Sequence record: OP136151.1
Strand: one strand, 5' to 3'
Length of the DNA: 60,610 bases
From: Escherichia phage Pondi
Shown: piece by piece, positions 2,247 to 50,100 of the stretch
How the letters are laid out: the number at the start of each line of letters is the position of its first letter
How positions within the stretch are numbered: the stretch's first letter is position 1
Notes under the pieces: generated by a model
What the model saw: only the letters and a program-made list of their open reading frames with translations
Databases searched by the model: none
What the model was told of the DNA's origin: nothing
Translations under genes and position numbers: made by a program

Positions 2247-3218
2247 TTAGGACGCTGAGTCCCAACGGATGATGCGGTTCTGAAGTGCCTGCGGATCGTC
2301 AGCCTGAGACTGGTTGTGAACGATACCGAAACCACCCATGTAGTACCACGCAACACCTTTGGAACGACCGTAGTCGGTAGGCAGTTTACCACGAATCTGT
2401 TCAGGATCGGTAACTGCTTCAGTTACGGTATCGCCACCGAAGAAGAACGCTTCGTCAGACTTACCATTGGTCCAGCCTTTGGACGGAATGTTGGTCTGCT
2501 CAACAAAGCGGCAACCTTCGTATTTGCCGATTTCGCCCAGGCGAATGTTACGCCAGCCGCTTTCAACGTACTTAGACAGTTCTTCAATCTCGTTACGAAT
2601 CGGACGGAAAGTCGTCGGACGCGCCAGAGCGAAGTAGTCGTCACCGTCGTAGCCCGGAATGTTACGCTCTTTCATCTCGTCGATGATAGCTTTAACGTGG
2701 TCCAGAGACAGTGCAGCGTCGTTCACAGTCGCAGTATGGTCACCAGCGGCGGCCACAGCTTCGATGTTCACCTGAGTAGCGGAGGTGCCGCTAACCGGGG
2801 AAGCTACCAGACGAGTCTGGTTGAACTGGCTGTACGCTTCGTAGTCGAGGGTCTTAGCACAGTCGTCTTTCAGAGCGGACTGGATAATGTTCTCAACCGG
2901 AACTTTGGACAGGTTGTCCAGTTTTTTGGTGTACGGTACGGAGTTACCGAACTCGTCGATCTGCAAGGAACCCTGGCGGATTTCGAAGTTGGTTTCTGGC
3001 AGAGCCTGACCTTCTTTCAGACGACCGCCCTGGGTACGTACGTTGGTGAAGATGTCCCAATGGAAAATATCACCGCGACCGTAAGTGAACGCTTCTTTCG
3101 CCGAGCAGAACTGGCGGAAACGCATCATCGGCTGTACTTCTTTACGCAGATACTGACTCAGTTGGTCTGAGTACATGAACCCGCCGAGACGCTCAACGCC
3201 CCACAATTGACCTGCCAT
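2247..3218 (-). CDS. Major capsid protein, 323 aa
   Basis: Position directly after the acidic coiled-coil scaffold gene; AAGGAG RBS; followed by stable hairpin; size typical of HK97-fold capsid proteins; no database check. Confidence 0.7.
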   Translation of the reverse strand: MAGQLWGVERLGGFMYSDQLSQYLRKEVQPMMRFRQFCSAKEAFTYGRGDIFHWDIFTNVRTQGGRLKEGQALPETNFEIRQGSLQIDEFGNSVPYTKKLDNLSKVPVENIIQSALKDDCAKTLDYEAYSQFNQTRLVASPVSGTSATQVNIEAVAAAGDHTATVNDAALSLDHVKAIIDEMKERNIPGYDGDDYFALARPTTFRPIRNEIEELSKYVESGWRNIRLGEIGKYEGCRFVEQTNIPSKGWTNGKSDEAFFFGGDTVTEAVTDPEQIRGKLPTDYGRSKGVAWYYMGGFGIVHNQSQADDPQALQNRIIRWDSAS

Positions 3219-7864: not shown

Positions 7865-9136
7865 TCACTTTAATTTCTCTTCCAGTTCAGCCACGCGCTG
7901 GGTTAACCGCTTGATTGCCGCCAGTGCGTCGAGCAACATTGGTGTCTGGTCCAGATGATAGTAACCGCCGACCTCTTTAACATACTGCGGATCAATGTCT
8001 TTAATCTGCTGGGAAATCACCCCACGACGCGGCGTGACATCCTCATCATCGTTGAACGTAAAGTTCTTGAACTCCATAGCGTTGACATTAGCCAGCGCGA
8101 TGTCCAGGTCAAGATCGCTACCTACAGTCTTCAGTCGGGAGTCAGACGGGGCCGATGTTGTGATTTGTAGCCATGTTCCCCACGACTGGTTGTTGGTCTG
8201 AATACGCGTAAAGATACGGTTTGATGTGTCGAAGAATCGCTGCTGAAACCACTCGCCGGAAACACCTGTCGCCTTAGCATTACCACGACCTACACCCTGC
8301 GTACATTGAGTGAATACCGATCCGTAGCTTGTCCCGGACACAGGAGGGTTAGCGACAGTACCGCCGATTTGCTGCCATCCTTGCGGTACCGTGTTGAAGT
8401 CAGTGGCGTTCGCTGTCGGTACACTGTTCCCGTCGTAGGCCAGACCGCCGTTTAACCCAATGTACGCCGTACCTGTGCGTGAAGGTTTAGTGAGCGAGAT
8501 AGTCCGGCGTGCGGTGTTGTCGGTACCGTTGGCGAAGAAGAACCAAAGCGCCTCACCGTTGCTTTCAATCAGCGCGCGGCGACCGATGTCTGAGATGTTA
8601 AACGGCGTATGGTCCAGCCACAGACCGGGATAACTGGTCGAGATGGTCTGCGTGTTAGTGAACGTGTTGAATGACAGCGACGCGGCGTTGAGATTGGTAC
8701 GTGCATCTACGGCATTGTCTGCACCGGTACCACCGTTGGCGATCGGGAGAACGCCGGACACGCGGGAGTCGAGCGGCAGACTGCCTACAGTATTCGCCAG
8801 GTCGATAGCGGGGCCAGCGGCTACGCCGTCAAGCCATGCGTGCACGTAGAAATTATTGGAGCGTGCGAGCAGTGAGCCGAGCAACACCCAGTTACCGTTA
8901 ACCGGAGGTTTCTTAGGGAAGTAGGGAGTCTTGTCAAGATAACCAGTCGTGAGAGTGTAGTCAGTAGCGCTGCCGCCGTAGCCCAGCACCATTAGCTGAC
9001 TTACCCAACCGCTGGCCTCGTTATACGTCGGGGTACCGTAGGGAACATAGCCGAGTGCGATTAACTCGTTGACCTTATTGATAACTTGAGGCGTCTTGCC
9101 GGGAATGAAGTAGCCGCCAGCGACTGTTAATTCCAT
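7865..9136 (-). CDS. Tail fibre/tailspike protein with C-terminal intramolecular chaperone (peptidase S74-like) domain, 423 aa
   Basis: Fibre-like motif IANGGTGADNAVDARTNLNA; C-terminal SDSRLKTVGSDLDLD resembles the S-D-x-R-x-K autocleavage motif of endosialidase/T5 L-shaped fibre chaperone domains; terminal coiled coil. Confidence 0.65.
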   Translation of the reverse strand: MELTVAGGYFIPGKTPQVINKVNELIALGYVPYGTPTYNEASGWVSQLMVLGYGGSATDYTLTTGYLDKTPYFPKKPPVNGNWVLLGSLLARSNNFYVHAWLDGVAAGPAIDLANTVGSLPLDSRVSGVLPIANGGTGADNAVDARTNLNAASLSFNTFTNTQTISTSYPGLWLDHTPFNISDIGRRALIESNGEALWFFFANGTDNTARRTISLTKPSRTGTAYIGLNGGLAYDGNSVPTANATDFNTVPQGWQQIGGTVANPPVSGTSYGSVFTQCTQGVGRGNAKATGVSGEWFQQRFFDTSNRIFTRIQTNNQSWGTWLQITTSAPSDSRLKTVGSDLDLDIALANVNAMEFKNFTFNDDEDVTPRRGVISQQIKDIDPQYVKEVGGYYHLDQTPMLLDALAAIKRLTQRVAELEEKLK

Positions 9137-13902: not shown

Positions 13903-13945
13903 CCTATAGGGGCCATCGCGCCCCACCCTTGACAGGAGACACATC

Positions 13946-17053: not shown

Positions 17054-17073
17054 GGGAGGCAACACCGCCTCCC
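17054..17073 (+). promoter_or_regulatory. Stem-loop in the predicted 5' leader (GGGAGGC-loop-GCCTCCC)
   Basis: 7-bp perfect stem about 10 nt after the predicted -10; possible 5' mRNA-stabilising hairpin. Confidence 0.3.
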
Positions 17074-18244: not shown

Positions 18245-18299
18245 GCACTACATTAACAATCGGTTTCTATGTAACGCTGGGCTATCTTTCTTTAACGTT

Positions 18300-18674
18300 G
18301 TGGGGGTTCCTGTGAACAACTTGCCGAGATTCATCGCCGCCGTGGCACATATTACCGACTTTCCGATTGAGCGTAGCAAGTACGGCAGTATGCAGGATGA
18401 GATGTACCAGGTGTACACACTCGACGATTTAACGTTAATCGGTTCTACCACGTTTGGCGGCTATCTGATCACTGTTCATAAAGGGCGCAGTGTTCTTTAC
18501 GAACTTCGGGTGTACGGTAACAATGCCATCTATCACCACACGTTACAACGAGCTATCAAGCTGGATAAACGTACCGGTAAATGGGTAACTTACGTTAAGT
18601 TAACCGAAGGCATGGCATTTACTAACCTTTATGATGCAATGATGCACTGCGGGGGTACTCATGGCTGGGTTTAA
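18300..18674 (+). CDS. Hypothetical protein, 124 aa (GTG start)
   Basis: ORF; start uncertain. Confidence 0.4.
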   Translation: MGVPVNNLPRFIAAVAHITDFPIERSKYGSMQDEMYQVYTLDDLTLIGSTTFGGYLITVHKGRSVLYELRVYGNNAIYHHTLQRAIKLDKRTGKWVTYVKLTEGMAFTNLYDAMMHCGGTHGWV

Positions 18675-18969
18675 TGTATTCGCAAGCGCGGCGCTTAAAC
18701 TGTCAATCGCGCTGTTTATTCTGTCGACGCTGTACATCATGACATGTGACTACGGCACCTTTCACGACATCATCACACAGTTAAGGCGGTTGTAATGCAA
18801 GGAATAATTACAGGTCTTGCCTTCTCCCTGACGTTGTGGGTAATGTCAATGGTTGCAGTATGGGCGGTCCTCCGGTTCGTGTTCGGTCTTCCGGTAGACC
18901 TCTGGCGTTAATTTTATGGTCGACGTGGTGGCGGCCTCCTTTCCACTACAAATAATAGGAGCTTCAAAC

Positions 18970-19155
18970 ATGTCTAAATCTATCATCGCTATCATCCTGG
19001 CTACTCTTCTGGCTGGTTGCTCTGCTAACGTCGGGTACAATCCCAACGTATCCGGGCAAACCGGGCGCGCTGAGTCCGACTCACCTAACGCGCAGCAACG
19101 CGCCGAGAACGCTCAGACGTCCCGTGATGCTGCGGCTAAGGGCGGCGAGTGGTAA
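18970..19155 (+). CDS. Small outer-membrane lipoprotein, 61 aa (candidate superinfection-exclusion protein)
   Basis: MSKSIIAIILATLLAGCSANV: signal peptide plus lipobox LAGC with Ser at +2; AGGAG RBS; followed by GC hairpin. Confidence 0.6.
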   Translation: MSKSIIAIILATLLAGCSANVGYNPNVSGQTGRAESDSPNAQQRAENAQTSRDAAAKGGEW

Positions 19156-19163
19156 TGAAGGGC

Positions 19164-19177
19164 GGGGCTTCGGCCCC
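19164..19177 (+). promoter_or_regulatory. GC-rich UUCG-tetraloop stem-loop (GGGGC-UUCG-GCCCC), third copy
   Basis: Same hairpin as at 2222 and 9157, here on the plus strand after the lipoprotein gene. Confidence 0.5.
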
Positions 19178-19182
19178 AAACT

Positions 19183-19377
19183 ATGGCGATCAATTTAAAA
19201 ACCCGTGTGCAATACCTGGCCGAGCGGGAGGCCATAAGTTTATCGGAGGTTGAACGGCGAGCAGGCTGGAAACGTGGCACGCTGTTCATGGTACTAAAAG
19301 CAAACAATCCACGCCTTCAAACGCTGGTATCACTGGCGGCGGCGCTCAACGTAACGGTAGGGGAATTAATATCATGA
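19183..19377 (+). CDS. Helix-turn-helix (XRE/Cro-like) DNA-binding protein, 64 aa
   Basis: LSEVERRAGWKRGTLFMVLKANNPRLQTLVSLAAALNVTVGEL matches the HTH_XRE pattern. Confidence 0.6.
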   Translation: MAINLKTRVQYLAEREAISLSEVERRAGWKRGTLFMVLKANNPRLQTLVSLAAALNVTVGELIS

Positions 19378-19601
19378 TGTCCATCGAGCAAGCATTAGCC
19401 CAAACACCTGGCGGCTTCAAACTGACCAGTTTTGACGGTCGCAACGACTCGGCTGTATGGGAAGACCGCAACGGGAATACGGTCGTTAAGTTTTACGAGG
19501 GGTATTTCGCACGATACAACGGCGAGATGTCGTCAAACTACGACACCATCAACGAGGCTTGCGCCTGGCTGGAATCAAAAAAGAAATGGTGGGGTAAATA
19601 A
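19374..19601 (+). CDS. Hypothetical protein, 75 aa
   Basis: ATGA-coupled ORF. Confidence 0.45.
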   Translation: MMSIEQALAQTPGGFKLTSFDGRNDSAVWEDRNGNTVVKFYEGYFARYNGEMSSNYDTINEACAWLESKKKWWGK

Positions 19602-19602
19602 T

Positions 19603-20719: not shown

Positions 20720-20722
20720 ACC

Positions 20723-21435: not shown

Positions 21436-21702
21436 GTGAACGTAAACGAAGCACTGAGTATCGCACCGGAAGGCTGGGAACTGATCAGCTTTGACAATAT
21501 GGGCGCTTGTCAATACAAACGCGAGTCGCATTTATTGAAGCGTTATCGTAACGGTACATGGGTATGCGTTGCTCGCGCTAACGATGAGCGTGAGTACGAA
21601 AGTAACGCATACCTGACAGCACAAGACGCGATCGACGACTGTCGCCGGGCGTTTGAGTCGCGCCGCGAAAAACTTTTCATATCACTGAGGAATTTAAAAT
21701 GA
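21436..21702 (+). CDS. Hypothetical protein, about 88 aa (GTG start)
   Basis: GTG preceded by AGAGGG; the longer upstream extension would contain the promoter candidate. Confidence 0.4.
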   Translation: MNVNEALSIAPEGWELISFDNMGACQYKRESHLLKRYRNGTWVCVARANDEREYESNAYLTAQDAIDDCRRAFESRREKLFISLRNLK

Positions 21703-21986
21703 AATATATCACCTGGATTCTCGCAGCATACGCCGCACTGGCTATCGGTATGAACGTAGCGCACGCGGCTGTACTCAAGACTCACACCTACAGTTTCACC
21801 ACAACCTACATCGTGACGGATACTGACAAGATCCCGGCGTGCATTATCTATGGCGGCGGTATGCCACTGGTCACACCAAACGCCTGTGATCGTGCCGTAC
21901 GCGTCATGGCTGAGCTTATCCGCAAGGATGACCCGACGGCACTCCTTGACTTCACTCTGGATGGTCTGGAGTTAAGCAAGTCATGA
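21699..21986 (+). CDS. Predicted secreted/periplasmic protein, 95 aa
   Basis: N-terminal signal peptide MKYITWILAAYAALAIGMNVAHA with an AxA cleavage site. Confidence 0.55.
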   Translation: MKYITWILAAYAALAIGMNVAHAAVLKTHTYSFTTTYIVTDTDKIPACIIYGGGMPLVTPNACDRAVRVMAELIRKDDPTALLDFTLDGLELSKS

Positions 21987-22252
21987 TGCGCGGCTATGTG
22001 CTGACGGTCGAGCTTAAAGCGGGTGCGAAGCTGTACCACTACCCGCAGCAAGTAGGCGGCCACCGCTGGGCGCTGACAGGGGCGAAGGTTGTCCCCGCCA
22101 GTCTTGATGAAACGTGCGACCAACTGGTTAAAGAAGGCTGGCTGGTACCGGGCGATGAGAGAAACGAGTGGGTACTATGGCAGACGGCATCATCAAATTC
22201 AAAATCTACCCCGGAAAACTCCGGGTCTACTTCAGCCTTGAAAAATACCTGA
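21983..22252 (+). CDS. Hypothetical protein, 89 aa
   Basis: ATGA-coupled ORF; 3' end overlaps next gene by about 76 nt, so C-terminus uncertain. Confidence 0.35.
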   Translation: MMRGYVLTVELKAGAKLYHYPQQVGGHRWALTGAKVVPASLDETCDQLVKEGWLVPGDERNEWVLWQTASSNSKSTPENSGSTSALKNT

Positions 22253-22509
22253 AGGACTTCCCGGACCGCAAAAGCGATGAGTACGCGTTAACAAACGCTT
22301 TTGCTACCGTTGAGCACATAGGGCCATGCGTGGTGTATATCAGGGAGCCTTCACCGTCGCTGGTGATGCACGAAGCTATACACTCAGCATGGGATGTTTT
22401 AAATCACGTAGGGATCAAGGTTGAATATGACAACCACGAAGCATTAACCTACCTGGCCGAGTATATTTTTACGGAGACTTTAAAGCTATGGACTCGCTAT
22501 TCGCGTTAA
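22177..22509 (+). CDS. Small protein with HExxH zinc-metallopeptidase-like motif, about 110 aa
   Basis: VMHEAIHSAWD contains HExxH; start set at internal ATG. Confidence 0.4.
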   Translation: MADGIIKFKIYPGKLRVYFSLEKYLKDFPDRKSDEYALTNAFATVEHIGPCVVYIREPSPSLVMHEAIHSAWDVLNHVGIKVEYDNHEALTYLAEYIFTETLKLWTRYSR

Positions 22510-22564
22510 TAGTTTTTATCGTACTGTGCTACGGGTTCTATAAAATACTGGAGATGATACTGAA

Positions 22565-23059
22565 ATGATTTACATCTGTGATTTGGACGGTACCTTGTAC
22601 GACAATCGCCACCGCGCGCACCTGATGCCGACTGGCGACAAACGCAACGACACCGAAGCCTGGGCGCAGTTTAACGGGGCGTGCCGTGGTGATAAGCCGA
22701 TCCCTAATATGCTGGCTATCATCAAGCAACTGTTGGCTAGTGGTGAATATGTGCGATTCCTCACCGGGCGCGGCAAGTCTGCCTACCTGCCGACGATGGA
22801 CCGCCTGCATAACGATCTGGAGTTAAGCCGCACGCTTATCGAATTACAGATGCGCCCTATGGATGACCACCGAAGCGCGGCTGAGTTCAAGTGTGATATA
22901 CTGCGCCGCCTGCTGAAGACCTACGGAACTGAAAAGTTTACGTGCTTTGAGGATGACCCTGAAGTTTGCGCAGCATTCGAAGCGCTTTCAGACCGGGTGA
23001 TCGTGGTGCAGGTTGATAGCCTGTGCGCTGCTGTACTGGATGGGGATAGTAATAAGTGA
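22565..23059 (+). CDS. HAD-superfamily phosphatase, 164 aa (polynucleotide 3'-phosphatase/nucleotidase-like)
   Basis: Motif I ICDLDGTL (DxDGT), motif II LTGR, conserved Lys, motif IV FEDD. Confidence 0.65.
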   Translation: MIYICDLDGTLYDNRHRAHLMPTGDKRNDTEAWAQFNGACRGDKPIPNMLAIIKQLLASGEYVRFLTGRGKSAYLPTMDRLHNDLELSRTLIELQMRPMDDHRSAAEFKCDILRRLLKTYGTEKFTCFEDDPEVCAAFEALSDRVIVVQVDSLCAAVLDGDSNK

Positions 23060-23292
23060 AAACAGTTGAATACTTTGGTTACGCGGTGGACGTACCGAAT
23101 AGAGCCACACACCTGGCGGCTGACGGTGACGGAACGGTTTACGCGTTTGTCGGTAAACCGTTCATTTTAGCTTACGTATGGTGGCCTCGAAACGGTTATG
23201 GTGCTGTCGAAACCTGTTACGTTACCGACTGCCCGAAACTCGATACACAAGCTATCGACTGGCGCGACTCACTGAAGGAGATTAAATCGTGA
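23056..23292 (+). CDS. Hypothetical protein, 78 aa (GTG start)
   Basis: GTGAAAAC context; coupled to neighbours. Confidence 0.45.
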   Translation: MKTVEYFGYAVDVPNRATHLAADGDGTVYAFVGKPFILAYVWWPRNGYGAVETCYVTDCPKLDTQAIDWRDSLKEIKS

Positions 23293-23918
23293 GCAATATT
23301 CACGTAATGGCAGACGTTGAGAACCTCAGCGTCGAGCCAAACGGACCTGTACTGACCATCGGCCTGGTAGCGTTCGACATTACCAGCGGTGAGATTGTGG
23401 CGGAGTTTTACGAGCGCATGGATCGCAATCTGGCGCAGAAATACGGCACGCCCAGCCTTTCTACCCTGAAGTGGTGGGAAGGTCAGGACGAGGCGGCCAG
23501 GGCTGAAGCGTACAACGGTACCAGCGACCCGCGCAACGTGGCGCGTAGCCTGCGTGAGTGGTTCGTCAAATACAACCTGGGTAACTCCGGCATTTGGGGC
23601 AACGGATCTGTAATGGACATCGCCCAGCTTGAATGGTGGCTACGTCAAACCAACCCTGTGATCGGTAAGTACGGGCAGGAATACCCGTGGAAATACAGGA
23701 ATATCTACGACATGCGCACAATCATGATGCTTGCAGGTATGCAGATGCCCCGCACGCGCCCGGCGCACATCCAGTATCATAACGCGCTGCATGATGCCCG
23801 GTACCAGGTTGAGTGGGTGTGCAAGGCTTACGCCAAACTCAATAACAAACCTGCCGTAATGCAGCAACAGCCGGACACGTGGCCGCCGGATGTAGATTCA
23901 TTCATTACTGCTGATTAA
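23289..23918 (+). CDS. DEDDh-family 3'-5' exonuclease (DnaQ-like), 209 aa
   Basis: Exo I MADVENL (D-x-E), Exo II GNGSVMDIAQL, Exo III YHNALHDARY (Y-x3-H-D). Confidence 0.7.
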   Translation: MSNIHVMADVENLSVEPNGPVLTIGLVAFDITSGEIVAEFYERMDRNLAQKYGTPSLSTLKWWEGQDEAARAEAYNGTSDPRNVARSLREWFVKYNLGNSGIWGNGSVMDIAQLEWWLRQTNPVIGKYGQEYPWKYRNIYDMRTIMMLAGMQMPRTRPAHIQYHNALHDARYQVEWVCKAYAKLNNKPAVMQQQPDTWPPDVDSFITAD

Positions 23919-23922
23919 TTAC

Positions 23923-23951
23923 TTGACAGTCAGGGACGACTATACTAAATT
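23923..23951 (+). promoter_or_regulatory. Sigma70-like promoter candidate (TTGACAGTCAG... -10 TAAATT)
   Basis: -35 TTGACA, 17-nt spacer; shares the extended TTGACAGTCAG with the candidate at 25852. Confidence 0.3.
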
Positions 23952-23986
23952 CATTATTCTACAAACGCGACAATAGGAAAATCAAA

Positions 23987-24169
23987 ATGAGCTTATTTGA
24001 CTTAGTATTCAATGCTTTCCAACCTGCGCCTGAAATCGGTAACACGTACCACGGTACCCGCACCGAGATCGTAACGTACACGAAGCGCTATACCCGTAAA
24101 GGTGTTCGCATCATTCCTTTAGAAGTCCGTGCGCTCCCTGGCAATAGCCGTGGTAAGGCGCGTCGCTAA
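23987..24169 (+). CDS. Hypothetical basic protein, 60 aa
   Basis: AGGAAAA RBS; TAATG coupling downstream. Confidence 0.4.
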   Translation: MSLFDLVFNAFQPAPEIGNTYHGTRTEIVTYTKRYTRKGVRIIPLEVRALPGNSRGKARR

Positions 24170-24660
24170 TGGCGATCACCTGTAACACACTGGACGAGGC
24201 CATCAAGCAGGCTGAACGCATGTCTGCGGTACTCGGTAAACCTTATTGCGTCGTGACGTATAAGGGGAAATACCGGGCAGTCCAGCGCGTTAACAAGCTG
24301 TACAGGCTGCGGGTAGTCTGGCAGAACTGGGAGCCTATCGAACGGTATCGCGTCCCAGTAGCCAACACGCCGATGAACAGAATGATTGTCGAGCGTAAAC
24401 CACGTGTTGAAGCTGCCGAATTACTGGGGATTCTCCCGCGACAGCTTGATACTGTGCGCAAGAAATACGGCTGGAAAAGTCCTGAGAAGGGCGTAAAGAT
24501 TGACCTTAATCATCTGCGTCACGCGATGCTAACCATGACCGCCAGCGATTACGCTGGTGAGATTGGGGTGTACCCTGAACGCATTTACAAGCTGTGCAAA
24601 CAGCATAACATCACGCGTCACGTCACGCGGCCACGGGGGAGTCGTAAAAATGGCAATTAA
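24169..24660 (+). CDS. Putative DNA-binding protein with two HTH-like segments, 163 aa
   Basis: AAELLGILPRQLDTVRKKYG and ASDYAGEIGVYPERIYKLCKQH resemble helix-turn-helix units. Confidence 0.4.
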   Translation: MAITCNTLDEAIKQAERMSAVLGKPYCVVTYKGKYRAVQRVNKLYRLRVVWQNWEPIERYRVPVANTPMNRMIVERKPRVEAAELLGILPRQLDTVRKKYGWKSPEKGVKIDLNHLRHAMLTMTASDYAGEIGVYPERIYKLCKQHNITRHVTRPRGSRKNGN

Positions 24661-24904
24661 TATTGAAGCTACAGCAACGAGTGTAGAGGTGGGTACGTCT
24701 ACCTACAACGAGATCAGCGTTAATATCGTACACTTGAACCTGGCCGAGTATGTGAGCGCTGAGGCAATTGTCGCTGAATACAGTGCATCTTCGCTACTAG
24801 ATGCGATCGGCGGCTTTGACGACTGGGTAGAAGAGGGGCGCGTCCGTGAATCAGACGTTGCTGAATGGCTGGCAGAACGTGGTTATAAAGTGGAGAAAGA
24901 ATAA
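24650..24904 (+). CDS. Small strongly acidic protein, 84 aa
   Basis: Internal ATG with GGGGGAG RBS; net charge about -12. Confidence 0.45.
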   Translation: MAINIEATATSVEVGTSTYNEISVNIVHLNLAEYVSAEAIVAEYSASSLLDAIGGFDDWVEEGRVRESDVAEWLAERGYKVEKE

Positions 24905-25104
24905 TGGGTAAGTTATCAGGTATCATTGCAATAGGTGCAATTTGGGGTGTTATTCTGGCTGGTATCACAGGCTGGTTCTTGAACCTGGCGCACTGCCTGT
25001 CGTATATTGGTGGAGGCCATCCAGATGATACCACCGCCGAAGTAGTGATGCGCATCGTAGGAATTTTCACCTTCTTACCTGGCGCGATTGCTGGCTGGCT
25101 GTAG
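24904..25104 (+). CDS. Small membrane protein, 66 aa, two predicted TM helices
   Basis: Two hydrophobic stretches; TAATG coupling. Confidence 0.45.
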   Translation: MGKLSGIIAIGAIWGVILAGITGWFLNLAHCLSYIGGGHPDDTTAEVVMRIVGIFTFLPGAIAGWL

Positions 25105-25150
25105 TAAATGATGGGCGCAATTCCGCGCCCCTCTCAAACGAGGTGCCTTT

Positions 25151-25846
25151 ATGAGTAAGAAACGTAATACCGCCGAAGTTGTCGAACTCAACACCACACC
25201 ATCCCCCGTTATCCGCGCAGATAAATCGCCCATTGAACCACGCACCGCAAACCAGGAATCGTATCTCGAAGCCATCCGAACCAAATCCCTTATTTTCGCC
25301 AGCGGTGAAGCCGGATGCGGGAAGACATTTATCGCGGCATGTAAAGCGGCTGAGTATTTATCTGACAAAGTTGTCGAACGGATCGTCGTCACCCGACCTG
25401 TACTCAACGCGGATGAAGACATGGGCTTCTTGCCTGGCGGACTTGCTGAAAAGTTCGACCCCTACTTCAGACCAGTCAAAGACACCTTAATCAAACGCCT
25501 GGGTGAGACGCACTTCAAATACTGCATGGACCACGGCAAGATTGAGATTGCACCGTTCGCCTACATGCGGGGCCGCAGCTTTGACAACGCGTTCATCATC
25601 CTCGACGAAGCGCAGAACGTCACACCTAAGCAAATGAAACTCTTCCTGACGCGTATCGGTGATAACTGCATCGTGGTCGTCAACGGTGACATCACTCAGT
25701 GCGACTTACCGAAGGGGACTCAAGACGGACTCAGCGATGCGTTAGCCCGTTTCCCCGACTCCGATGACGTGGCCGGGATTCTCTTCCACAAAAATGATTG
25801 CGTTAGATCACATATTTGTAGACTTGCATTAGAAGCCTACGAATAA
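25151..25846 (+). CDS. phoH: PhoH-like ATPase, 231 aa
   Basis: Walker A GEAGCGKTFIA and the PhoH-family FIILDEAQN...GD.TQCDLP motif. Confidence 0.8.
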   Translation: MSKKRNTAEVVELNTTPSPVIRADKSPIEPRTANQESYLEAIRTKSLIFASGEAGCGKTFIAACKAAEYLSDKVVERIVVTRPVLNADEDMGFLPGGLAEKFDPYFRPVKDTLIKRLGETHFKYCMDHGKIEIAPFAYMRGRSFDNAFIILDEAQNVTPKQMKLFLTRIGDNCIVVVNGDITQCDLPKGTQDGLSDALARFPDSDDVAGILFHKNDCVRSHICRLALEAYE

Positions 25847-25851
25847 ATCTA

Positions 25852-25880
25852 TTGACAGTCAGATTTAACTAACCTATATT
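25852..25880 (+). promoter_or_regulatory. Sigma70-like promoter candidate (TTGACA-17-TATATT)
   Basis: Strong -35/-10 match between phoH stop and next gene. Confidence 0.45.
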
Positions 25881-25915
25881 TACCCTATCGCTAACGAGCA
25901 ATGGGGTAAATAGTC

Positions 25916-41610: not shown

Positions 41611-42448
41611 AGTCACCGCGTTCACGGTCGAGAAGGAACTCGACCTGTCGAAGCCGAATGAGGATGCGTACTTCAAACCGTGCACTGCCGGGAACGAAGA
41701 AAGCATTGGCCTCATCGCGGCTAACCCTATGCAGGATGAGATGACCTGGATACACAAGGGTATCACCTTCCTACAGTTCCAGTACCAGAAACGCAAGGTA
41801 CCAGACAAATGGTTGCGTGCTGAGTTCGCTCGCCGCACCAAAGATAAAACCTTCAACCGGGATGAGGCCAATACCATTTATGAACAAGTTAAAGCGGAAA
41901 TGTGGGAGAATGTACTGCCTTCTAACGACTACGGCTGGGTGGCGTATGATCCAGATCGAGATGCTCTTTTTGTGGGCGCTTCTCCCCGTGTGGTTGAAAA
42001 GGTCACGCAACTCTTACGCCAGGCGTTTAACAGCCTGCCGATCGAAAGTTATCTCCAACCTACGGCGTTTTGTCAAATGGTACGAGCTACGCTGAATATC
42101 GACCGGGAAGATGAGCACCCGCTGGAACTGGGCGACAGTCTGGACCTGTACGGTGCTTTCAAAGCTACAGCAACCTTCCGCAAAATGGACAACCTGTCAG
42201 GTAACGATAAGGTGTTTTCCACGCTGAAGGACTTCCCGAATGTGCAGGCGGCCAACTTCACGTACGCTGGTGACGAAGGTTATTTTGCGTGTACCCGGTA
42301 CACCGACATGGTGATCCCGTACGAAAAGGATAAGGAAGCTGATGACTGCGGCGACATCCTGTTGCAGTACGACAAGGCCAGTCAGTATCTTGACATACTC
42401 GCTGAAGTTTGCGAGCCATACGTAACTGAAAAAGGAGCGAAGCTATGA
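41594..42448 (+). CDS. rdgC: RdgC-like recombination-associated protein (putative), 284 aa
   Basis: N-terminal pattern MTAKFKVTAF...FKPCTAGNEE and a C-terminal DREDE segment recall E. coli RdgC; from memory. Confidence 0.35.
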   Translation: MTAKFKVTAFTVEKELDLSKPNEDAYFKPCTAGNEESIGLIAANPMQDEMTWIHKGITFLQFQYQKRKVPDKWLRAEFARRTKDKTFNRDEANTIYEQVKAEMWENVLPSNDYGWVAYDPDRDALFVGASPRVVEKVTQLLRQAFNSLPIESYLQPTAFCQMVRATLNIDREDEHPLELGDSLDLYGAFKATATFRKMDNLSGNDKVFSTLKDFPNVQAANFTYAGDEGYFACTRYTDMVIPYEKDKEADDCGDILLQYDKASQYLDILAEVCEPYVTEKGAKL

Positions 42449-42975
42449 CAAGTATAAATGAAATTATCGACGAGATTATTCGCGTTGAAGGTGGATATGT
42501 AGACCATCCGAATGATCCGGGCGGTGCTACCAAATATGGCATCACTGAAAAGGTTGCCCGTGCTGCTGGGTATAAAGACCATATGAAAGACTTACCGTAT
42601 GGTATCGCACGTAACATCTACTACACTGACTATGTGGTTAAACCGGGTTTCGACAAGCTGGCTGAGATCAACGCTGACATCGCGGCTGAAGTGGTAGACA
42701 CTGGCGTGAACATGGGTCCGACGGTGGCTGGTAAATTCCTCCAGCGTGCACTCAACGCTGTGTCAGGCGCTGGCCTCGTAGTGGACGGTGCTGTCGGTAA
42801 GCGTACAGTGAATGCCCTCGCAGACTTCCTGCGTTCACGCGGTAGCGTTGGCGCTAAAGTATTACTGAAAATGCTTAACAGTCTCCAGTGCGTACGGTAT
42901 ATTGAGCTTACCGAAAGTAACGCCAAAAACCGCTCATTCATTTATGGATGGGTCGCCAACCGCGTGAACATCTAA
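42445..42975 (+). CDS. Endolysin: glycoside hydrolase family 108 domain plus peptidoglycan-binding domain, 176 aa
   Basis: N-terminal EGGYVDHPNDPGGATKYGIT is the GH108 signature; C-terminal PG_binding_3-like region; AAAGGAG RBS. Confidence 0.8.
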   Translation: MTSINEIIDEIIRVEGGYVDHPNDPGGATKYGITEKVARAAGYKDHMKDLPYGIARNIYYTDYVVKPGFDKLAEINADIAAEVVDTGVNMGPTVAGKFLQRALNAVSGAGLVVDGAVGKRTVNALADFLRSRGSVGAKVLLKMLNSLQCVRYIELTESNAKNRSFIYGWVANRVNI

Positions 42976-43031: not shown

Positions 43032-43265
43032 ATGGACAAATCCAAAGCGCTGCACGACGCTGGTATCACTATCGGTATCGCTGTGACCACCGTGTTAACC
43101 ACGGTACCGGACGCCGCGTTAGTAGTGTGGCAGACTGCCCCGCATTTATTCCAGGCTGTGGTACCGGAAGAATATCTCCCGGTCGTGTCTGGTGTCATTA
43201 CTTTACTGGTGGCAATCAGTCGCGTCATCAAAGCTAAGAAAGCTAAGGCGGAGAAGAATGGCTAA
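43032..43265 (+). CDS. Holin (class II-like, two TM helices), 77 aa
   Basis: Two hydrophobic helices and Lys-rich C-terminus, immediately downstream of endolysin. Confidence 0.55.
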   Translation: MDKSKALHDAGITIGIAVTTVLTTVPDAALVVWQTAPHLFQAVVPEEYLPVVSGVITLLVAISRVIKAKKAKAEKNG

Positions 43266-43458
43266 GGGACTCCGTATTACCAGACGTGAAGGTCAGAGCG
43301 TCTACATCGGTAACGATATTGTCGTGACGGTAGAGAACTCCGAGAACGGTAACGTCGGTCTACGCATTTCCGCACCGTCGGATGTAGGTATTCACCGCGA
43401 TCCTGACCGTGTACCTGTGCAGTTAAAAATTGCAGCGAGTATTAAAAAGGGGCGTTAA
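43258..43458 (+). CDS. csrA: CsrA/RsmA-like RNA-binding protein (carbon storage regulator homologue), 66 aa
   Basis: MAKGLRITRREGQSVYIGNDIVVTVEN...GNVGLRISAPSDVGIHRD aligns with E. coli CsrA [25 protein letters not shown]...VRIGVNAPKEVSVHRE; GGAG RBS; overlaps holin 3' end. Confidence 0.65.
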   Translation: MAKGLRITRREGQSVYIGNDIVVTVENSENGNVGLRISAPSDVGIHRDPDRVPVQLKIAASIKKGR

Positions 43459-43470
43459 GCCCCTTTGTTT
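43444..43470. terminator. Bidirectional rho-independent terminator
   Basis: A5, stem GGGGC/GCCCC with GTTAA loop containing the csrA-like stop codon, then TTTGTTT; sits between convergent genes. Confidence 0.65.
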
Positions 43471-43688
43471 ACTAAGCGTTCCACTTCTTCCCTCAAGTGC
43501 TCGATAGTCTGTTCCGCCCTCGCCAGTTTAGCCGACAGCAAAACAATCCTTTCGTTCGTGGCCTCTTCCGCAGCTTCCTTCTTACGTTCGTTGTGAAGAT
43601 TCAACGCATGGCGCACCAGGTTGAATAACACAGCGATGGCAATGAAAGGTAACGGCGCATCCACAGGAATTGAACTAAGTTCGAACAT
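43455..43688 (-). CDS. Membrane-anchored coiled-coil protein, 77 aa (i-spanin-like)
   Basis: N-terminal TM helix PFIAIAVLFNLV followed by charged helical ERKKEAAEEATNERIVLLSAKLARAEQ. Confidence 0.4.
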   Translation of the reverse strand: MFELSSIPVDAPLPFIAIAVLFNLVRHALNLHNERKKEAAEEATNERIVLLSAKLARAEQTIEHLREEVERLVNKGA

Positions 43689-44049
43689 GAGCCAACTCCC
43701 ATAAAGTGACGCCAGCGGTAGACCAGAAAATCAGGATGGGAACTACTCCGACTGCGGCGGCTTGTGCGGCCATGCCGAGATAACACCAGAAGATACAACT
43801 GAAGAACGCTACACACCAGTGGCTGAATGTTCCCATCCATCGCTCAGGGTTGCGGGAGATATAGATCTGAGCGCCACCGATCACAATGCCTGAGAATACC
43901 CACCATGCGCCAGGCATGATACCAGTTAACTCATCAATAATGACTGGCTGTTTGAATACTGCCGCCACGATTGACCACGTTAATGTCACCATGCCGACAA
44001 GCATTTCCACTCTAATCTGCTTGTTCATGTTGTAATATCCCATGTCCAT
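43675..44049 (-). CDS. Integral membrane protein, 124 aa, 3-4 TM helices (holin/antiholin-like or exclusion protein)
   Basis: Multiple hydrophobic helices; GGAG RBS; downstream of the terminator that ends the giant gene. Confidence 0.45.
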   Translation of the reverse strand: MDMGYYNMNKQIRVEMLVGMVTLTWSIVAAVFKQPVIIDELTGIMPGAWWVFSGIVIGGAQIYISRNPERWMGTFSHWCVAFFSCIFWCYLGMAAQAAAVGVVPILIFWSTAGVTLWELAHVRT

Positions 44050-44165: not shown

Positions 44166-47100
44166 TTAAAACAACATCCAATATTTGTCACTCAATTCTT
44201 TCGCCAGTTCGTTCTTCTTGACCTGCAAGGCATCCAGTTCTGCACGCTTCGCTTCAGGTGACATACCGTCGTTCGCGTAAATCTCTTTCGTCTGGCGGTT
44301 GTACTTCTGCATCCGGGCAACGCCTTTCTCAATTGACTTACGGGCAGACAACACGCTGGCCTTCTCGGTCTTAAACTCCCGATACGCCTGCATGTTCTTC
44401 TGGTCTTTGTACGCCTTCAGGGTACCGTACGTTTGACCAGCCTTCTCGCTCATCTGGTACAGACGGTCGGTGTATTTGTCGCCGGACACACCGCCACGTA
44501 CGAAAGTTTTTACCACCGGGTAATCAAAATCCTTTTTAGCCGGGGCAACTTTTTCGGTACCCGTTCCTTTGCGATAGGCCACGTCCGTTACACCGACGAT
44601 GTACTGACCGACTGTCCCGGTGTAACCCTCAATCATATGCTGGAGACGCAGCGGACTACGCATCCATTCCGGGGCAGCTTCAGGTAACGCCTTGCTCATA
44701 TCCTTAATCCACTCAGGCGTCGTGGTGCTGTGCTGCTGGTTAGCTTCCAGACGTTGCAGTGACTGCGGTACGATTGGACGCTGAGTAAAGCTATTCATGT
44801 TGGTCTGGTCTTCGTAGATCGGCTTGAAGAACTGAGGCCAGTCTGCCGCAAACGTGTTAGACAACATGAAGCCCAGGCGTGCACCAAACATACGGTCGTC
44901 ACGGTACAGCGCTTCGAATGCACGCTCAGGAATAGTGCCGAACAGTGCGCCCAGTTCGAACGGTTTCGGGATACGGTAGCGAGTGTCGCCAGCGAAGATG
45001 ATCCAGAAGGAATCACGCTCATGTTCTGGCAGCGCCCAGTAACGTTCGTCGTCCGCGTTCATTGCCATAAGGGCCATCGTTGCACCAACAAGTAGAGCAC
45101 CTTTCAGCATGAACGCTTTCGGGTTCTCTTTACCACCACGTACCATACGGTCCAGACCCTGCACACGGGCATTCAGGAACGGTATCATCGCCATCGCTGC
45201 TTTGGTTACACGGCTGCTACCACGGCGGCTGAAGTTCAGCACATCGTTAGACTGGTATGCAGCTTCCACCGGATCGCCAGTGTGCTTCAGGACGTCTTCG
45301 TACACACCCATGCGAGTGGCCTGTTCGGATGCCGTCAGCAACTTACTGTACATTTCCCACAGCTTCTTAGGTGAGTTAACGATGGTGCCGCCTTTCTCCA
45401 GCTTGCGCAGGTTTTTGGCAACCGACTCAGGACGGGAGTTATCGTAACCGCCCATCATGCCGCCAGCGACGTGGTAGTCGACAGCCATCGAGTCGTTGCG
45501 GATGGAACGCATCGCACCCTGGAACGCTTTGAAGAACGGGCGGAACGTCAGGACGTCTTTAGTGATAGCAGACATTCCGTTGCGGCCAGCGGCTTTAGTC
45601 ATCTGCACATAGTTACCCATTACGTCACGCACGAAGTTGGTCATAACGAAGTTAGGCGTTGACGTCACGGCTGCTGTGAATACACGTTTAGGCCAGCCGA
45701 GAATGTTGATGAGGGTATCGACGGCTTCCGGGCCAACACCTGCGATTGCTTCCAGCAACTGCGGGTCGGTCACTTCGTAATACTTCGCCTTGCCACCTTC
45801 ACGCACGGAGATAATGTTAGCGCCCTGCGGTGCTACTGCGGTGAACAGGTTGGAGTATTGCGCCATCTGCTCAGCGGTCATACCTTCAACCTTCAGGCCC
45901 AGGTTGGTCAGCGCACGTTTCATCTGCTCGTTGCTGATACCGACAGGCTTGAAGTTGTGCGGCACTTCTTCCAGCGCTGCGTTGATGGTAATGTCGCGCA
46001 CCTTCTGCATGGCCGCGTTCTTGTAGCCGGACGAGATCATGTGGTTAACGTTACGCGCCATGTTCTCCAGGATGTCCATTTTACCAGCGCCACCCTTCAG
46101 ACGGCGGATGCCGGAAGACTGATCAGCGAGGCCACGTTTTCCAGACGGTGCTGTTACACGGTCCACTTCCTCATCCACACGGTAGAACGGAACGTAGTCG
46201 TCGGATTCGAACAGTTTACGCTGCTCAGGATCTACGATGCCAGTTTGCTCACCGAAGTCGAGGATGGCTTTGTTAAACTCACGCCAGTCTTTGTGCGCCT
46301 GGTTGAATACCTTACGCATTTCCGGGCGACGGTTAACATAGTCGATGATGTCTTTAATCTGCTTCTCGGTGTACAGGTTTTCGCGGCCTTCTTCCATCAA
46401 GCGTTTGGCACGCACAGCACCCGCCCAGTATTCCCACACTGGCAGCATATTACCTTTCATCTCCAGCACTGGATTGAAGATTTCAGTGAAGCCTTTGGTG
46501 TTCTTGTTCAGGCTGATGCCACCGTCTTTGTATACCGGAGCGCCGTGGTTCATTGCGACGGCCACGGTGCTGTTCACGTTCTTCGCCAGCATTGCCATCT
46601 TGTACGCCGACTCTTTACCCTGACGCAGTTCACCGTTGTTACCAGCCTTCTCATATTTGGCGATGGTGTACAGGTCATCCACGCCTTTCTGATACAAGCC
46701 TTCCATCGTCAGACCGTTGTCTTTCATGATGTCTTTGATGCGCTGGAACAGAGAGCGGTCATCGCGGTACATGGTGTCACGCATACCCTGCTTGATGTCT
46801 TCGTCCACTTCCGCAGACTCGATGTCGTTTTTCTTTTTCAGGCTGGCGGCAAAGTTACGCGGCGCGCTGTACTGCATCGGCGGCAGAGATTTACGCACGT
46901 CGTCACGGTTGACAGTGTTGTCACGCAGGTACTGAGCATTGGCCTGAATAAGCTGGCGTACAGACTCCATGCTGGCGCGACCGTCAATCAGCTTGGCTTT
47001 AATCATCAACTGACGCAGAGCTTCCAGCACGCGGGTAATGACGTTGGACTTCTCCAGGATAGCTGGGTTTTCCGCAGCCAGCGCTAGGACTTCTTCAGCC

Positions 47101-50100
47101 ATCATACGCTGCGCGTCAGGTGACGACATGTCGTACAGTTCGCTGTAGCTCTCGCGCACTTCTTTGAAATACTTCGCCAGCGCCGGGGACTTATCGGCGG
47201 CCAGGATTTTATCCATCTCAGCGTCGTATTCCGGTTTAGACAGGCGAGCACGCAGACCGTAGTGTACGACAATCTCATGACGCAACAGAGCTTCCACTTC
47301 TTCCTTGCTGGTCAGGTTTTCGGAGATCAGTTTAGCGCTCACGTTGCCAGCGTCATAGAAGCCGAGCAGGACGCTACCTTCCGGCAGGTCGATACCCATA
47401 TCTTCCTGACGCTGCATGACGGTCATGTCTACAGCCTGCGCGCCTTTGAACTTCTTCAGGAAGTCGGCGGCAACCACAGCCACATCTTCCGGTGACATAC
47501 CTTGCTTATCAGACGCAGGTTTAACGCTGGCAGCACCGGACTGTTTGTCAATCTTACGCTTAGCGTAGTCCTTACCGAAAATCTCACGACGACCTTTTGA
47601 GTCTTCAGTAGCCAGGTACGTGTCGTGGATAGACTTAACGGTGAACGTCTCGCCGTCTTCCTCGAAAGTCTTACCTACCAGCGTGTGATAGTCGACATTA
47701 GGGGTAACGTCCGGCTTGTCAGTCTTCTTCGGTACGCGAGCTTCTTTGTAGGCCACGTAATGTTTGGCTGGCGCTGACATGTCACGGGAGTCAACCTTAT
47801 CACCACGGGCATACGCGCGGTCGATGGTTTCCTTCAGTGTGATACCGTCAGGTTGCATCTTCTCCAGGGCGCGGACGTAGTTGCGACGTACCAGTGGCTT
47901 CATACCACGTGTGAAATCTTCCAGTGACTTCTCGAAAGATTCAGTGCGCGCGGCAGACTTCTCACGCAGACGGTCAGCCGTCGCCTGACTTTCTTTACTC
48001 AGACCTTTCGGTGACGGTTCAGCGATACTGGACATGCGTTCTTCCAGTTCCTTACGCATGGTCGCGCGAGTCTTACCTTTCAGTGGCGCGTACAGATGAC
48101 GGTCGGATTCCGGTACCTGCGTTTCCATAGCGGCCAGGGTCTCACGCACTTTGTTCAGCGGACGCTTGGTATCGTTGACTTCATGCAGCACACCTTGCAG
48201 CGTATTAGCGTTGACACGGCTTTCCGAAGACATCCCTAAACGATCACCTTTGCCCGGCGCGTCCATCACGTTGCTGTCACCACCGCGACGAATCATGACA
48301 TCGCCGTTGTCCAGCACGAAGCGACGACCTTGCACACCAGTGATCTTGCGGACTTCACCGTGGGAGTCTTTCGCATACTTCCCGTCCAGGTCGGTACCTT
48401 CCACTGGCCCAAAACCAACACGACCTTCAACGTCGGTAACGCGAGTAGACTCACCTTCGATTGCGGCGTTATCCTTTTCCTTCTCTGCGATCATCTCACC
48501 CAGGTCACGCTGGACTTCGGCAGACTGCGCCAGTACATCGTCGGTCGCCTGCTGTGCATCGGTAACCATCTCACCCAGGTTGCGCTCGTCTTCGAACTCT
48601 ACAGGGGCTAGGTCATAACGCTCACGGGCATCTTTGGTTTCCTGAGACACACGCTTCATACCTTCCGGTACCACAGACGGCACGTTGATTTCACGGGCGT
48701 CGACAATGTGACCGTTGCCGTTCTCATCAACCAGACGTACAGCGCGGCCCTGGAATTTATCGACGGAATACTCCTTGCCGTTCCAGTTCACTTTGTTGCC
48801 GACGTCAACGCCACGCTCGTTGGCTTCCTTCAGGATCTTGTTGGTAACCTGAATAGCTGGCTGCTTCTTGCCAGGTAACGCCGGACGCACAGATTCACGC
48901 TCGATGTATTTCGCTACAGCCTCGTCACCTTTCGCCTTTAGTTCTGCCTGACGTGCTTCTTCGGCGGCCAGCGCTTCTGTATCGACTTCTGGCGCGGCTT
49001 TCTTTTTGGTACGGGCAAACAGTGCTGACTTCGGTTTAACCTCGGCAGCGGCTGGCTCAGCGGCGGGAACGGTCGGTTCCAGTGCAGCGGCTACGTCAAT
49101 CTGCGGCAGCGGCGGTGGAGTCACTTTATCTTTCGGCGGCAGTGCTGGCGGTACCACAGCTTCGGTAACCTGCGGTAATGCTGGCGCTTCCAGTTTCTGC
49201 TGTACTGCTGCCAGTACCGGAGACTCTTCAGCGACACCGCGTGGATTGTAACCAGTGGCCTCTTTAACCTGCGCAACTGGACCGGGCATAGCGATGGTGG
49301 AAGTTTGCCCCGGAGACGGCAGACCTTTAGTTTCACCCGGCAGCGGACCGACGTCACCCTGCGCTACCTGCTGCTGTACCATCTGAGCTACAGACTGCGG
49401 TGCGTTAGTGGCGCTCGCCTTGTTCGCATAGTAGATAGAGTCCGGGGAGTCGAATAGTTCGCTGACCATCTGATCCATAGCGTCGACTTCACCGACATCA
49501 CGGGATGCGGCCATCGCTTCAGCCGGAGACATACCCTGAGCGCGCGCTTCCATGTAGGCAGACTTGCGAGCTTCAGTGATTGCAGGAGACGCCTGTTCAA
49601 CCATCTGGTCCAGCACGTCACCGCCGCCCATCTCAGCACGCACAGCGTCGTATTCGTTCGGGTCCACACCTTCAACAGCCTGACCGGACTCAGCCGCAGC
49701 GTCACCGATAGCGTTGTTAACAGAGCGGTTATCCTTCCAGTCTTTGACCATGCCGGGAGCTTGCACCGCGCCATGCAGAGTAGCACCTACGCCAGCACCA
49801 GTTACACCGGAGAACGCCACGTCATTCAGGAACTGGCCTACCGTCATGTCTTCGTCGAGCACGCCGATGTCGTAACCATTCTGGATAGCCTGGGTAGCGG
49901 ATTCCTGAATACCTTCAGCTATTGCAGATTTGCCGAGATCAGTAAGGCTGTGGGCACCTTTCTTCATGATGAGGCCCAGCGGTACCGCTTCAGTAATCGG
50001 TTCCAGTGCGGCGAACATGGTTGCGCGGTTGTCGGCTTCTGCCGGAGACAGACCTTTGTCGATTGAGTCCTGATAGTAGGAACCGTACGCCTGACCAGTC

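Follow-up and report, generated by a model that had tools for sequence, protein, structure and literature searches.

Genes and features at the locus

The window analysed here is the whole 60,610-nt sequence of Escherichia phage Pondi (OP136151.1), and all positions are given in its numbering. It represents a Xuquatrovirus-type E. coli podophage: over 18000-20800 it shares 85% nucleotide identity with Escherichia phage PTXU04, a 61.6-kb virulent podovirus of the genus Xuquatrovirus, and phage HelliStehle/Bas95 (hereafter Bas95) matches part of that length. Our subject is a plus-strand gene whose 61-residue product is very probably an outer-membrane lipoprotein of accessory character, and which an earlier, sequence-only reading of the window had put forward as a superinfection-exclusion or receptor-masking factor. 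The gene, its parts and its immediate neighbours are as follows.

18912..19182, plus strand: exchangeable cassette made up of a hairpin, the lipoprotein gene and a second hairpin; replaced exactly in Bas95
18925..18949, plus strand: upstream hairpin GUGGUGG-CGGCCUCCUUU-CCACUAC in the 5' leader; compensatory changes, and a counterpart in the relative L009
18957..18961, plus strand: Shine-Dalgarno (SD) sequence AGGAG, 8 nt 5' of the ATG; read from the sequence and invariant in 7 of 7 close homologues
18970..19155, plus strand: prolipoprotein coding sequence, 61 residues; open reading frame (ORF) list and sequence, the PTXU04 orthologue gp71, metagenomic clusters and purifying selection
18970..19020, plus strand: predicted signal peptide with lipobox L14-A15-G16-C17 (Cys codon 19018-19020); PS51257-type rule in 8 of 8 members
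19021..19080, plus strand: conserved mature core, codons 18-37, SANVGYNPNVSGQTGRAESD; alignment invariance, a ratio of non-synonymous to synonymous variation (pN/pS) of 0.18, predicted by AlphaFold2 (AF2) to be unstructured
19081..19137, plus strand: hypervariable segment, codons 38-56, rich in Ala, Gln, Arg and Asp; drop in nucleotide identity, predicted by AF2 to be helical
19164..19177, plus strand: downstream hairpin GGGGC-UUCG-GCCCC, between the stop codon and the start of the next gene; conserved in relatives, without a U-tract
19183..19377, plus strand: Cro/C1-type helix-turn-helix (HTH) gene, 64 residues; Pfam matches above gathering cut-offs

A predicted outer-membrane lipoprotein

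The reading frame runs from the ATG at 18970 to the TAA at 19153-19155, and its product is MSKSIIAIILATLLAGCSANVGYNPNVSGQTGRAESDSPNAQQRAENAQTSRDAAAKGGEW. The sequence-only reading had described a textbook lipoprotein signal with Ser at position +2, and the description holds. In agreement with the PROSITE PS51257-type rule, K3 falls within the first seven residues, Cys stands at position 17, the six positions before the lipobox are uncharged, the hydrophobic stretch reads IIAIILATL and the box L-L-A-G-C. Each of the eight family members conforms, including the one that is only 45-50% identical, and the window protein likewise agrees with the lipobox pattern [LVI][ASTVI][GAS]C with its Cys at 15-35, a basic n-region and an uncharged h-region. 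The Pfam model LPAM_1 scores 15.3 bits on the signal peptide, under its cut-off of 20. The lipobox pattern is permissive, with 17 start-codon matches in the six frames of the window versus 6.8 in shuffles; we therefore judge the gene real because of its hydrophobic core, SD sequence, conservation and purifying selection, and not because of the pattern alone. Under stricter criteria, which combine a hydrophobic core, a canonical box and an SD sequence, no other lipobox ORF of the 60.6-kb window is convincing.

Two other frames were considered and set aside. A 79-residue version of the protein, starting at the in-frame ATG 18916, was rejected since that start has no SD sequence and is unconserved in relatives. 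A second lipobox ORF (59316..59029, minus strand), which lies out of frame in a gp16-like gene, encodes 95 residues with a GGAG SD sequence, a KKR n-region and an LLGC lipobox; it was judged a chance occurrence, for its composition is off-frame-like, it is absent in Bas95, and it is kept in PTXU04 only through near-identical DNA.

In Enterobacteria, lipoproteins avoid the Lol export pathway when Asp at +2 is combined with a suitable +3 residue, and the outer membrane is otherwise the default destination. Within this family position +2 is Ser (Ala in P0006, the most divergent member) and position +3 is Ala or Thr, so that the Asp-based avoidance signal is absent. Sorting to the outer membrane, as had been proposed, is thus the default prediction for the 61-residue lipoprotein.

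By protein comparison with 25 PTXU04 genes, the window is a collinear, permuted and reverse-complemented relative of that phage, with most virion proteins 91-100% identical. The lipoprotein gene sits inside a long block of small plus-strand genes at ~11.3-27.7 kb, the counterpart of PTXU04 gp47-gp95, which contains sigma-70-like promoters and lies apart from the lysis genes, ~23 kb from the lipoprotein gene. A promoter scan and a reading of the sequence found no sigma-70 promoter directly upstream of the gene itself, and it is by its position in this same-strand block with sigma-70-like promoters that we take the gene to be probably early. The same block holds a 95-residue ORF (21699..21986, plus strand) with a classical Sec signal peptide (MKYITWILAAYAALAIGMNVAHA/A), which would give the early-type region a second exported product.

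A small family with an invariant core and a hypervariable helix

The orthologue in PTXU04, gp71, is 95% identical to the window lipoprotein. It was re-annotated as 'phage lipoprotein' by HHpred in a CRISPRi-ART study, where it was called 'Not Fit' with a mean fitness of -1.11 (PMC11879866, supplements 8, 16); the lipoprotein annotation of this orthologue is already in the literature and is not new here, and the 'Not Fit' call implies that PTXU04 can do without the lipoprotein when forming plaques and that the gene is hence accessory. The original PTXU04 paper mentions neither a lipoprotein nor a spanin, and its virion protein analysis assigned gp7 and gp10-gp12 only (PMC6563267).

Searches of 5.8 billion clusters, by single sequence and by profile, and of 1.8 billion representatives by full HMMER returned six protein clusters, which together with PTXU04 gp71 constitute the family. 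Five of the clusters are 75-95% identical and the sixth, P0006 (64 residues), 45-50%; a match to a 2878-residue representative (E 1e-3) was set aside as low-complexity. Among 50,697 GenBank phage records, tblastn found PTXU04 alone, and blastn against 5,426 complete E. coli genomes found nothing.

Despite its small size the family has kept its features closely. Length stays at 61-64 residues, and the start codon, the SD sequence, K3, L14, G16 and C17 are invariant in eight homologues, down to 45-50% identity. The mature form, 44 residues counted from Cys17, follows the signal peptide in a three-part layout in which an invariant core precedes a variable C-terminal part; Cys17 is the sole Cys, and the mature part has 2 Pro. 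In the core, G22, Y23, N26 and S28-S36 (GY..N.SGQTGRAES) are unchanged even in P0006. Many synonymous and few or no replacement changes have accumulated in the signal peptide (pN/pS 0.35) and in the core, a pattern that indicates purifying selection on both segments.

The C-terminal part behaves otherwise. Across the 57 nt of codons 38-56, the window is only 53-58% identical to the relatives L006, L011 and L012, whereas in the same comparison the leader, signal and core are 92-98% identical and the downstream HTH gene 86-88%; over the whole family, the C-terminal part keeps only R44, K57 and G59. With a pN/pS of 0.51 and synonymous sites that are saturated, positive selection is not demonstrable for this segment, whose variation may equally well stem from recombination that reassorted old alleles or from relaxed constraint, the helix being exposed. 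An AF2 model built from seven sequences, with a predicted local distance difference test (pLDDT) score of 60, suggests a signal helix, an unstructured core (pLDDT ~50) and a helix at residues 40-57. A Foldseek search of viral structures returned no match with E under 2.8, and we draw no inference from the fold. It is this architecture of an invariant linear motif joined to a hypervariable helix that the present analysis adds to the earlier annotation.

An exchangeable slot upstream of the HTH gene

In Bas95, positions 18912-19182 are replaced by unrelated DNA, while the flanks on either side (a 44- and a 38-residue ORF, and the HTH gene) are ~90-95% identical. The replacement carries a 57-residue hydrophobic orphan ORF (L002 3906..4079) which has a possible LIGC box and, for want of a basic n-region, fails the lipoprotein rule. 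Elsewhere the same position is filled differently. In L013, a 59.5-kb metagenomic relative whose HTH protein is 81% identical, it holds a 32-residue peptide with a single transmembrane (TM) segment (2431..2529). In L014 (1581..2195) and L015 (114..728), with HTH proteins 53-55% identical, a 204-residue lipoprotein is encoded upstream of the HTH gene, directly so in L015 and one small ORF away in L014; its lipobox reads SLTGC or LLSGC, it has a Trypsin_2 domain above the gathering cut-off, and from its sequence it looks like a phage-encoded, membrane-anchored periplasmic protease. In L009, a 64-residue homologue of our lipoprotein lies directly upstream of the HTH gene.

Exported or membrane proteins of several kinds are thus encoded at this hot spot just before the HTH gene, the 61-residue lipoprotein being one alternative, and such a pattern fits what is typical of genes for competition or host interaction. 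Both the hairpin-bounded cassette and the HTH-proximal slot for envelope effectors are additions of the present analysis. The 32-residue ORF of L013 and the 57-residue ORF of Bas95 show translational coupling to the adjoining genes and are not flanked by hairpins.

Two small hydrophobic ORFs stand immediately 5' of the lipoprotein gene, one of 44 residues (18661..18795, plus strand) and one of 38 residues (18795..18911, plus strand), the latter corresponding to PTXU04 gp72. Both are conserved in Bas95, and neither has a family match in Pfam or PHROGs. Counting the lipoprotein, three small products directed to the envelope are encoded here in a row.

Flanking hairpins and the HTH gene

The lipoprotein gene had been described as followed by a stable UUCG hairpin and an HTH regulator gene, and both are present. 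The hairpin begins 8 nt 3' of the stop codon and ends 5 nt 5' of the HTH ATG. Its folding energy (-9.6 to -11.2 kcal/mol) is ordinary against shuffles for a sequence so rich in G+C (z = 0.10), and we judge it real because of its conservation, not its energy: it is kept in six close relatives, in L005 an identical stem is capped by a GCAA loop, and at this position the distant L009 carries another hairpin, of 7 bp. An intrinsic terminator was considered and rejected, as the stem is followed by AAACUAUGG without a U-tract and a terminator scan was silent.

The pairing of the upstream hairpin is preserved through G-U wobbles at differing positions and one double compensatory change (GCGGUGG/CCACCGC in L005), and L009 has a CCGGGG-cggcauuu-CCCCGG hairpin at the corresponding position. 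In folding energy it is unremarkable; the wobbles speak for a structure formed by the sense-strand RNA. A leader fold that sequesters the SD sequence and the AUG, given by the minimum free energy of the window sequence, was rejected: its anti-SD CCUCC is CCAUC in L005, while it is the simple hairpin that shows compensatory changes.

The downstream gene is identified as a regulator by the Pfam models HTH_26 (27.6 bits, cut-off 22) and HTH_3 (26.5 bits, cut-off 23). Its product is 81-91% identical in close relatives and 53-56% in distant ones, and a viral-contig search with it returned only PTXU04 itself and an unrelated high-GC phage. The one SD-like sequence of the HTH gene, GAAGGG (AGGAGA in L005), is found just 5' of the hairpin (19157..19185, plus strand), at a distance of 20 nt from the AUG that shrinks to ~6 nt if the UUCG hairpin folds. 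Hairpin-bridged ribosome-binding sites have been described for some T4 genes, and a site of this kind is possible for the HTH gene.

Further G+C-rich hairpins without a U-tract occur between genes of the early-type block (13909..13924, 17054..17073 and 25113..25130, plus strand), some of them adjoining sigma-70-like promoter matches. These other hairpins of the block may be processing or stability elements.

Comparison with known phage lipoproteins

A family search in PDB and PADLOC gave no match to the lipoprotein. Without its signal peptide, the mature part has no match in Pfam, PHROGs or NCBIfam, and the mature part of P0006 likewise has none in NCBIfam or PHROGs. Weak matches of the full-length protein to Lpp/OprI, Cor, Rz-like spanin, TrbK and LptM were rejected, as all of them vanish once the signal peptide is removed; the lipoprotein is therefore no member of the Llp, Cor, Rz1 or Lpp families. 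The likeness to T5 Llp and to T1/phi80 Cor drawn in the sequence-only reading thus has no counterpart at the level of sequence.

T5 Llp is also a small, dispensable lipoprotein of a virulent coliphage, expressed from a non-late gene, and differs in that its mature part has no sequence similarity to that of the window lipoprotein. Anchored in the outer membrane's inner leaflet, Llp works from the periplasmic side, where the folded protein, with a Cys11-Cys58 disulphide (mature numbering), binds the FhuA plug (PMC9586334). The Cor proteins of T1, phi80, N15 and HK022 (PHROG 1119) are likewise small outer-membrane lipoproteins encoded by accessory phage genes; the match to PHROG 1119 covers residues 1-20, that is the signal peptide, at E 0.11, and the mature part has none. 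Cor genes lie in the tail or receptor-binding protein region of siphoviruses.

Lipoproteins that block entry or injection by acting on the incoming machinery are also known, namely Ltp of Streptococcus phage TP-J34 and TrbK of IncP plasmids. They resemble our protein as small, membrane-anchored lipoproteins with a variable recognition part. They differ in lacking any homology to it, the TrbK model covering residues 5-29 only (E 0.055), and Ltp acts at the cytoplasmic membrane of a Gram-positive host. By analogy, action of the Ltp/TrbK kind could explain both the hypervariable helix and the link to the phage ejection module considered below.

A candidate exclusion factor at the periplasmic face of the outer membrane

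Where the small outer-membrane lipoproteins of virulent coliphages other than spanins have been studied, they are exclusion factors (Llp, Cor; PMC9586334), and exclusion is therefore favoured a priori. Our leading hypothesis, held tentatively and drawn from this analogy and from genomic context, is that the window gene encodes an accessory envelope factor that may exclude other phages by acting at the periplasmic face of the outer membrane. The orthologue is dispensable, the gene occupies a swap slot, the helix is hypervariable and the gene co-occurs with a PTXU04-type tail/ejection module, all of which fits this reading. The lipoprotein is present where that module is: the module is 91-98% identical in the window and only 32-55% identical in Bas95, where the lipoprotein is replaced and the 2198-residue gp25 is absent. 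A sharply bounded hypervariable helix inside DNA that is otherwise 92-98% identical is, moreover, as expected for an arms-race interface. For the gp25-like giant protein, which is essential ('Fit') in PTXU04, the comparison of Bas95 (L010 ~22158..25900) with the window (44169..50744) aligns a 68-residue fragment only.

In such a scheme, the host enzymes Sec, Lgt, LspA and Lnt would export and lipidate the prolipoprotein and cleave it at Cys17, leaving a mature form of 44 residues composed of a lipid anchor, an invariant and probably unstructured 20-residue motif (GYNPNVSGQTGRAES) and a short, hypervariable polar helix. The product of a dispensable, lineage-specific accessory gene, carried in a hairpin-flanked cassette just upstream of a Cro-like regulator gene, would then act from the periplasmic side on an envelope component used in phage entry, be it a secondary receptor or an incoming phage's trans-periplasmic ejection apparatus. 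Superinfecting phages would be excluded as a result, and/or progeny would be spared dead-end adsorption. The role would be functionally analogous to that of T5 Llp and Cor, the protein being unrelated to both.

Several observations weigh against an exclusion function. The function itself is argued from analogy and context, and searches of PHROG, Pfam and NCBIfam and by tblastn gave no homology to any exclusion protein, the matches being confined to the signal peptide. The mature peptide, very small and without a disulphide, was modelled with low confidence (pLDDT 60); with 44 residues, no second Cys and, as modelled, a disordered motif and one short helix, it is unlike the folded Llp. The llp gene adjoins a receptor-binding gene. 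The window lipoprotein gene does not; the tail-fibre genes of the window, at ~7.9-10.0 kb, are ~10 kb away from it. Three genomes underlie the correlation with the tail module, and the window and PTXU04 have unlike distal tail fibres but lipoproteins that are 95% identical. The hypervariability, for its part, could reflect relaxed constraint, its pN/pS of 0.51 not being above 1. Finally, Bas95, the sole relative with receptor data, is completely dependent on O-antigen (10.1101/2024.09.12.612763), a receptor that a periplasmic lipoprotein cannot mask directly.

Taken together, the missing link to the distal fibre, the O-antigen dependence of Bas95 and the tiny, unstructured peptide weaken the simple model in which the protein masks its own phage's receptor, and action on a secondary receptor or on the ejection apparatus would be more compatible with the data. 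The earlier proposal of an exclusion or receptor-masking factor accordingly survives in part: an accessory, dispensable gene in an envelope-swap slot is what we find, and exclusion is still the leading hypothesis, with simple masking of the phage's own receptor as its less likely form.

The tail genes vary between these phages in places of their own. The distal gp04-like tail fibre (~7868..9136, minus strand) is unrelated to that of PTXU04 beyond its first 157 residues, which align at 76%, and the middle parts of the gp17- and gp18-like tail proteins (56088..58520, minus strand) fail to align with PTXU04. These divergent parts are probably host-range determinants that differ between otherwise near-identical phages.

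A more specific version of the hypothesis, in which the lipoprotein would be an exclusion or recognition factor of a novel type, is a long shot. Exclusion would here be allele-specific, with the invariant disordered motif docking on a fixed component of the envelope or ejection channel and the hypervariable helix discriminating between incoming phages; the protein would act on the trans-periplasmic ejection apparatus of podoviruses, and the slot upstream of the HTH gene would be a general exchange site of this phage lineage for periplasmic 'envelope effectors', namely the lipoprotein, the lipoprotein protease and the TM peptides.

Alternative roles

The strongest of the competing explanations, which we nevertheless regard as unlikely, is that the lipoprotein remodels or hijacks the host envelope for the benefit of its own phage, not to exclude competitors, and does so through its conserved linear motif. 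It might bind or titrate a periplasmic or outer-membrane host factor, with Lpp, peptidoglycan tethering, the BAM, Lpt or Lol machinery, an envelope stress sensor or an envelope-located defence as possible targets. Invariance and lack of structure are typical of short linear binding motifs, two more small membrane ORFs lie just upstream, and the lipoprotein protease that occupies the slot in distant relatives suggests action on host envelope proteins. A hypervariable helix, on the other hand, is less expected in a protein that binds a conserved host protein.

The resemblance to Lpp speaks for this explanation at first sight and loses force on closer comparison. The window protein shares with Lpp/OprI (NCBIfam NF040598) an LAGC lipobox, Ser at +2 and an Ala-rich polar helix, and BLASTP aligns it to E. 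coli Lpp at 36% identity over 58 residues, most densely across the signal peptide and lipobox. The NF040598 score of 25.1 bits (E 1.8e-5) falls short, however, of the curated 43-bit cut-off, nothing is left of the match without the signal peptide, and OprI gives no alignment at all. The helix has ~18 residues versus ~50 in Lpp, and the C-terminal residue in the family is W, K, Q, R or N, not the conserved peptidoglycan-linking Lys of Lpp.

Disfavoured, and in our view improbable, is a role as an o-spanin (Rz1-like) that would pair with an inner-membrane protein from another locus to fuse or disrupt the outer membrane at lysis. Two genes make up the lysis cassette.

42445..42975, plus strand: endolysin, GH108-type
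43032..43265, plus strand: holin, PHROG holin match at E 3.5e-8

No spanin is annotated or detectable beside the endolysin and holin genes in the window or in PTXU04, none is annotated in Bas95, and the 61-residue protein is the only credible lipoprotein in the genome. Its length and outer-membrane lipoprotein signal are typical of o-spanins, and like the Rz1-type proteins of ~60 residues it would have a largely unstructured periplasmic part. There is also an i-spanin candidate, a 77-residue protein (43455..43688, minus strand) of a narrow family, which with its N-terminal TM domain and charged coiled coil resembles a short i-spanin. Convergent to the lysis cassette, its ORF is accompanied by a 124-residue ORF with several TM segments (43675..44049, minus strand); the two ORFs, each called Not Fit in CRISPRi-ART, are kept in Bas95. 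Weak PHROG matches to Rz-like proteins (E 0.05-0.13) point the same way, and in T4, too, the spanin genes are remote from those for holin and endolysin and received a Not Fit call in CRISPRi-ART. Since the PTXU04 holin was Not Fit as well, the CRISPRi-ART call cannot separate a spanin from an exclusion factor.

The arguments against the spanin role, which the present analysis adds, are of several kinds. In two-component spanins, the i-spanin and o-spanin genes are as a rule adjacent, overlapping or embedded. Here no i-spanin gene stands in any of these arrangements: the neighbours encode the 38- and 44-residue peptides and the HTH protein, the only i-spanin-like ORF is 24 kb off on the other strand, and the lipoprotein gene belongs to the early-type block, outside the lysis cassette. 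The Rz-like matches vanish without the signal peptide, and the mature part, with 2 Pro and no extra Cys, differs from Rz1-type o-spanins in being neither Pro-rich nor equipped with an intermolecular Cys, as well as in having no partner gene nearby. In Bas95, where the lipoprotein is replaced, the i-spanin-like protein, holin and endolysin are 85-97% identical, and the 95% identity of the first of these, the gp27-like candidate partner, is incompatible with a specific C-terminus to C-terminus complex. In L013, moreover, the slot holds a TM peptide that is not a lipoprotein.

That the frame is a chance or decaying ORF, or a small protein neither exported nor lipidated, is very improbable: chance does produce several lipobox patterns in 60 kb of sequence, the family is tiny and absent from the searched GenBank phages (PTXU04 excepted) and from the 5,426 E. 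coli genomes, and the gene is dispensable and replaceable, yet its start, SD sequence, K3, L14, G16 and C17 do not vary in eight homologues, changes in signal and core are mostly synonymous, and the length is held at 61-64 residues.

Significance

The finding is modest, given that the orthologue was already annotated as a lipoprotein and found non-essential. Xuquatrovirus phages are almost uncharacterised, with most of their genes lacking an assigned function, and a small outer-membrane lipoprotein that combines an invariant motif with a hypervariable helix gives experiments easy access to the ways in which these podoviruses handle the envelope and their competitors; that its slot is filled with other envelope proteins in relatives adds to its value. 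Identification of the protein as the missing spanin would account for the way in which these phages get through the outer membrane. As an exclusion factor, it would represent a third family of such coliphage lipoproteins, without relation to the two known ones, and might lead to the secondary receptor or the ejection route that these phages use.

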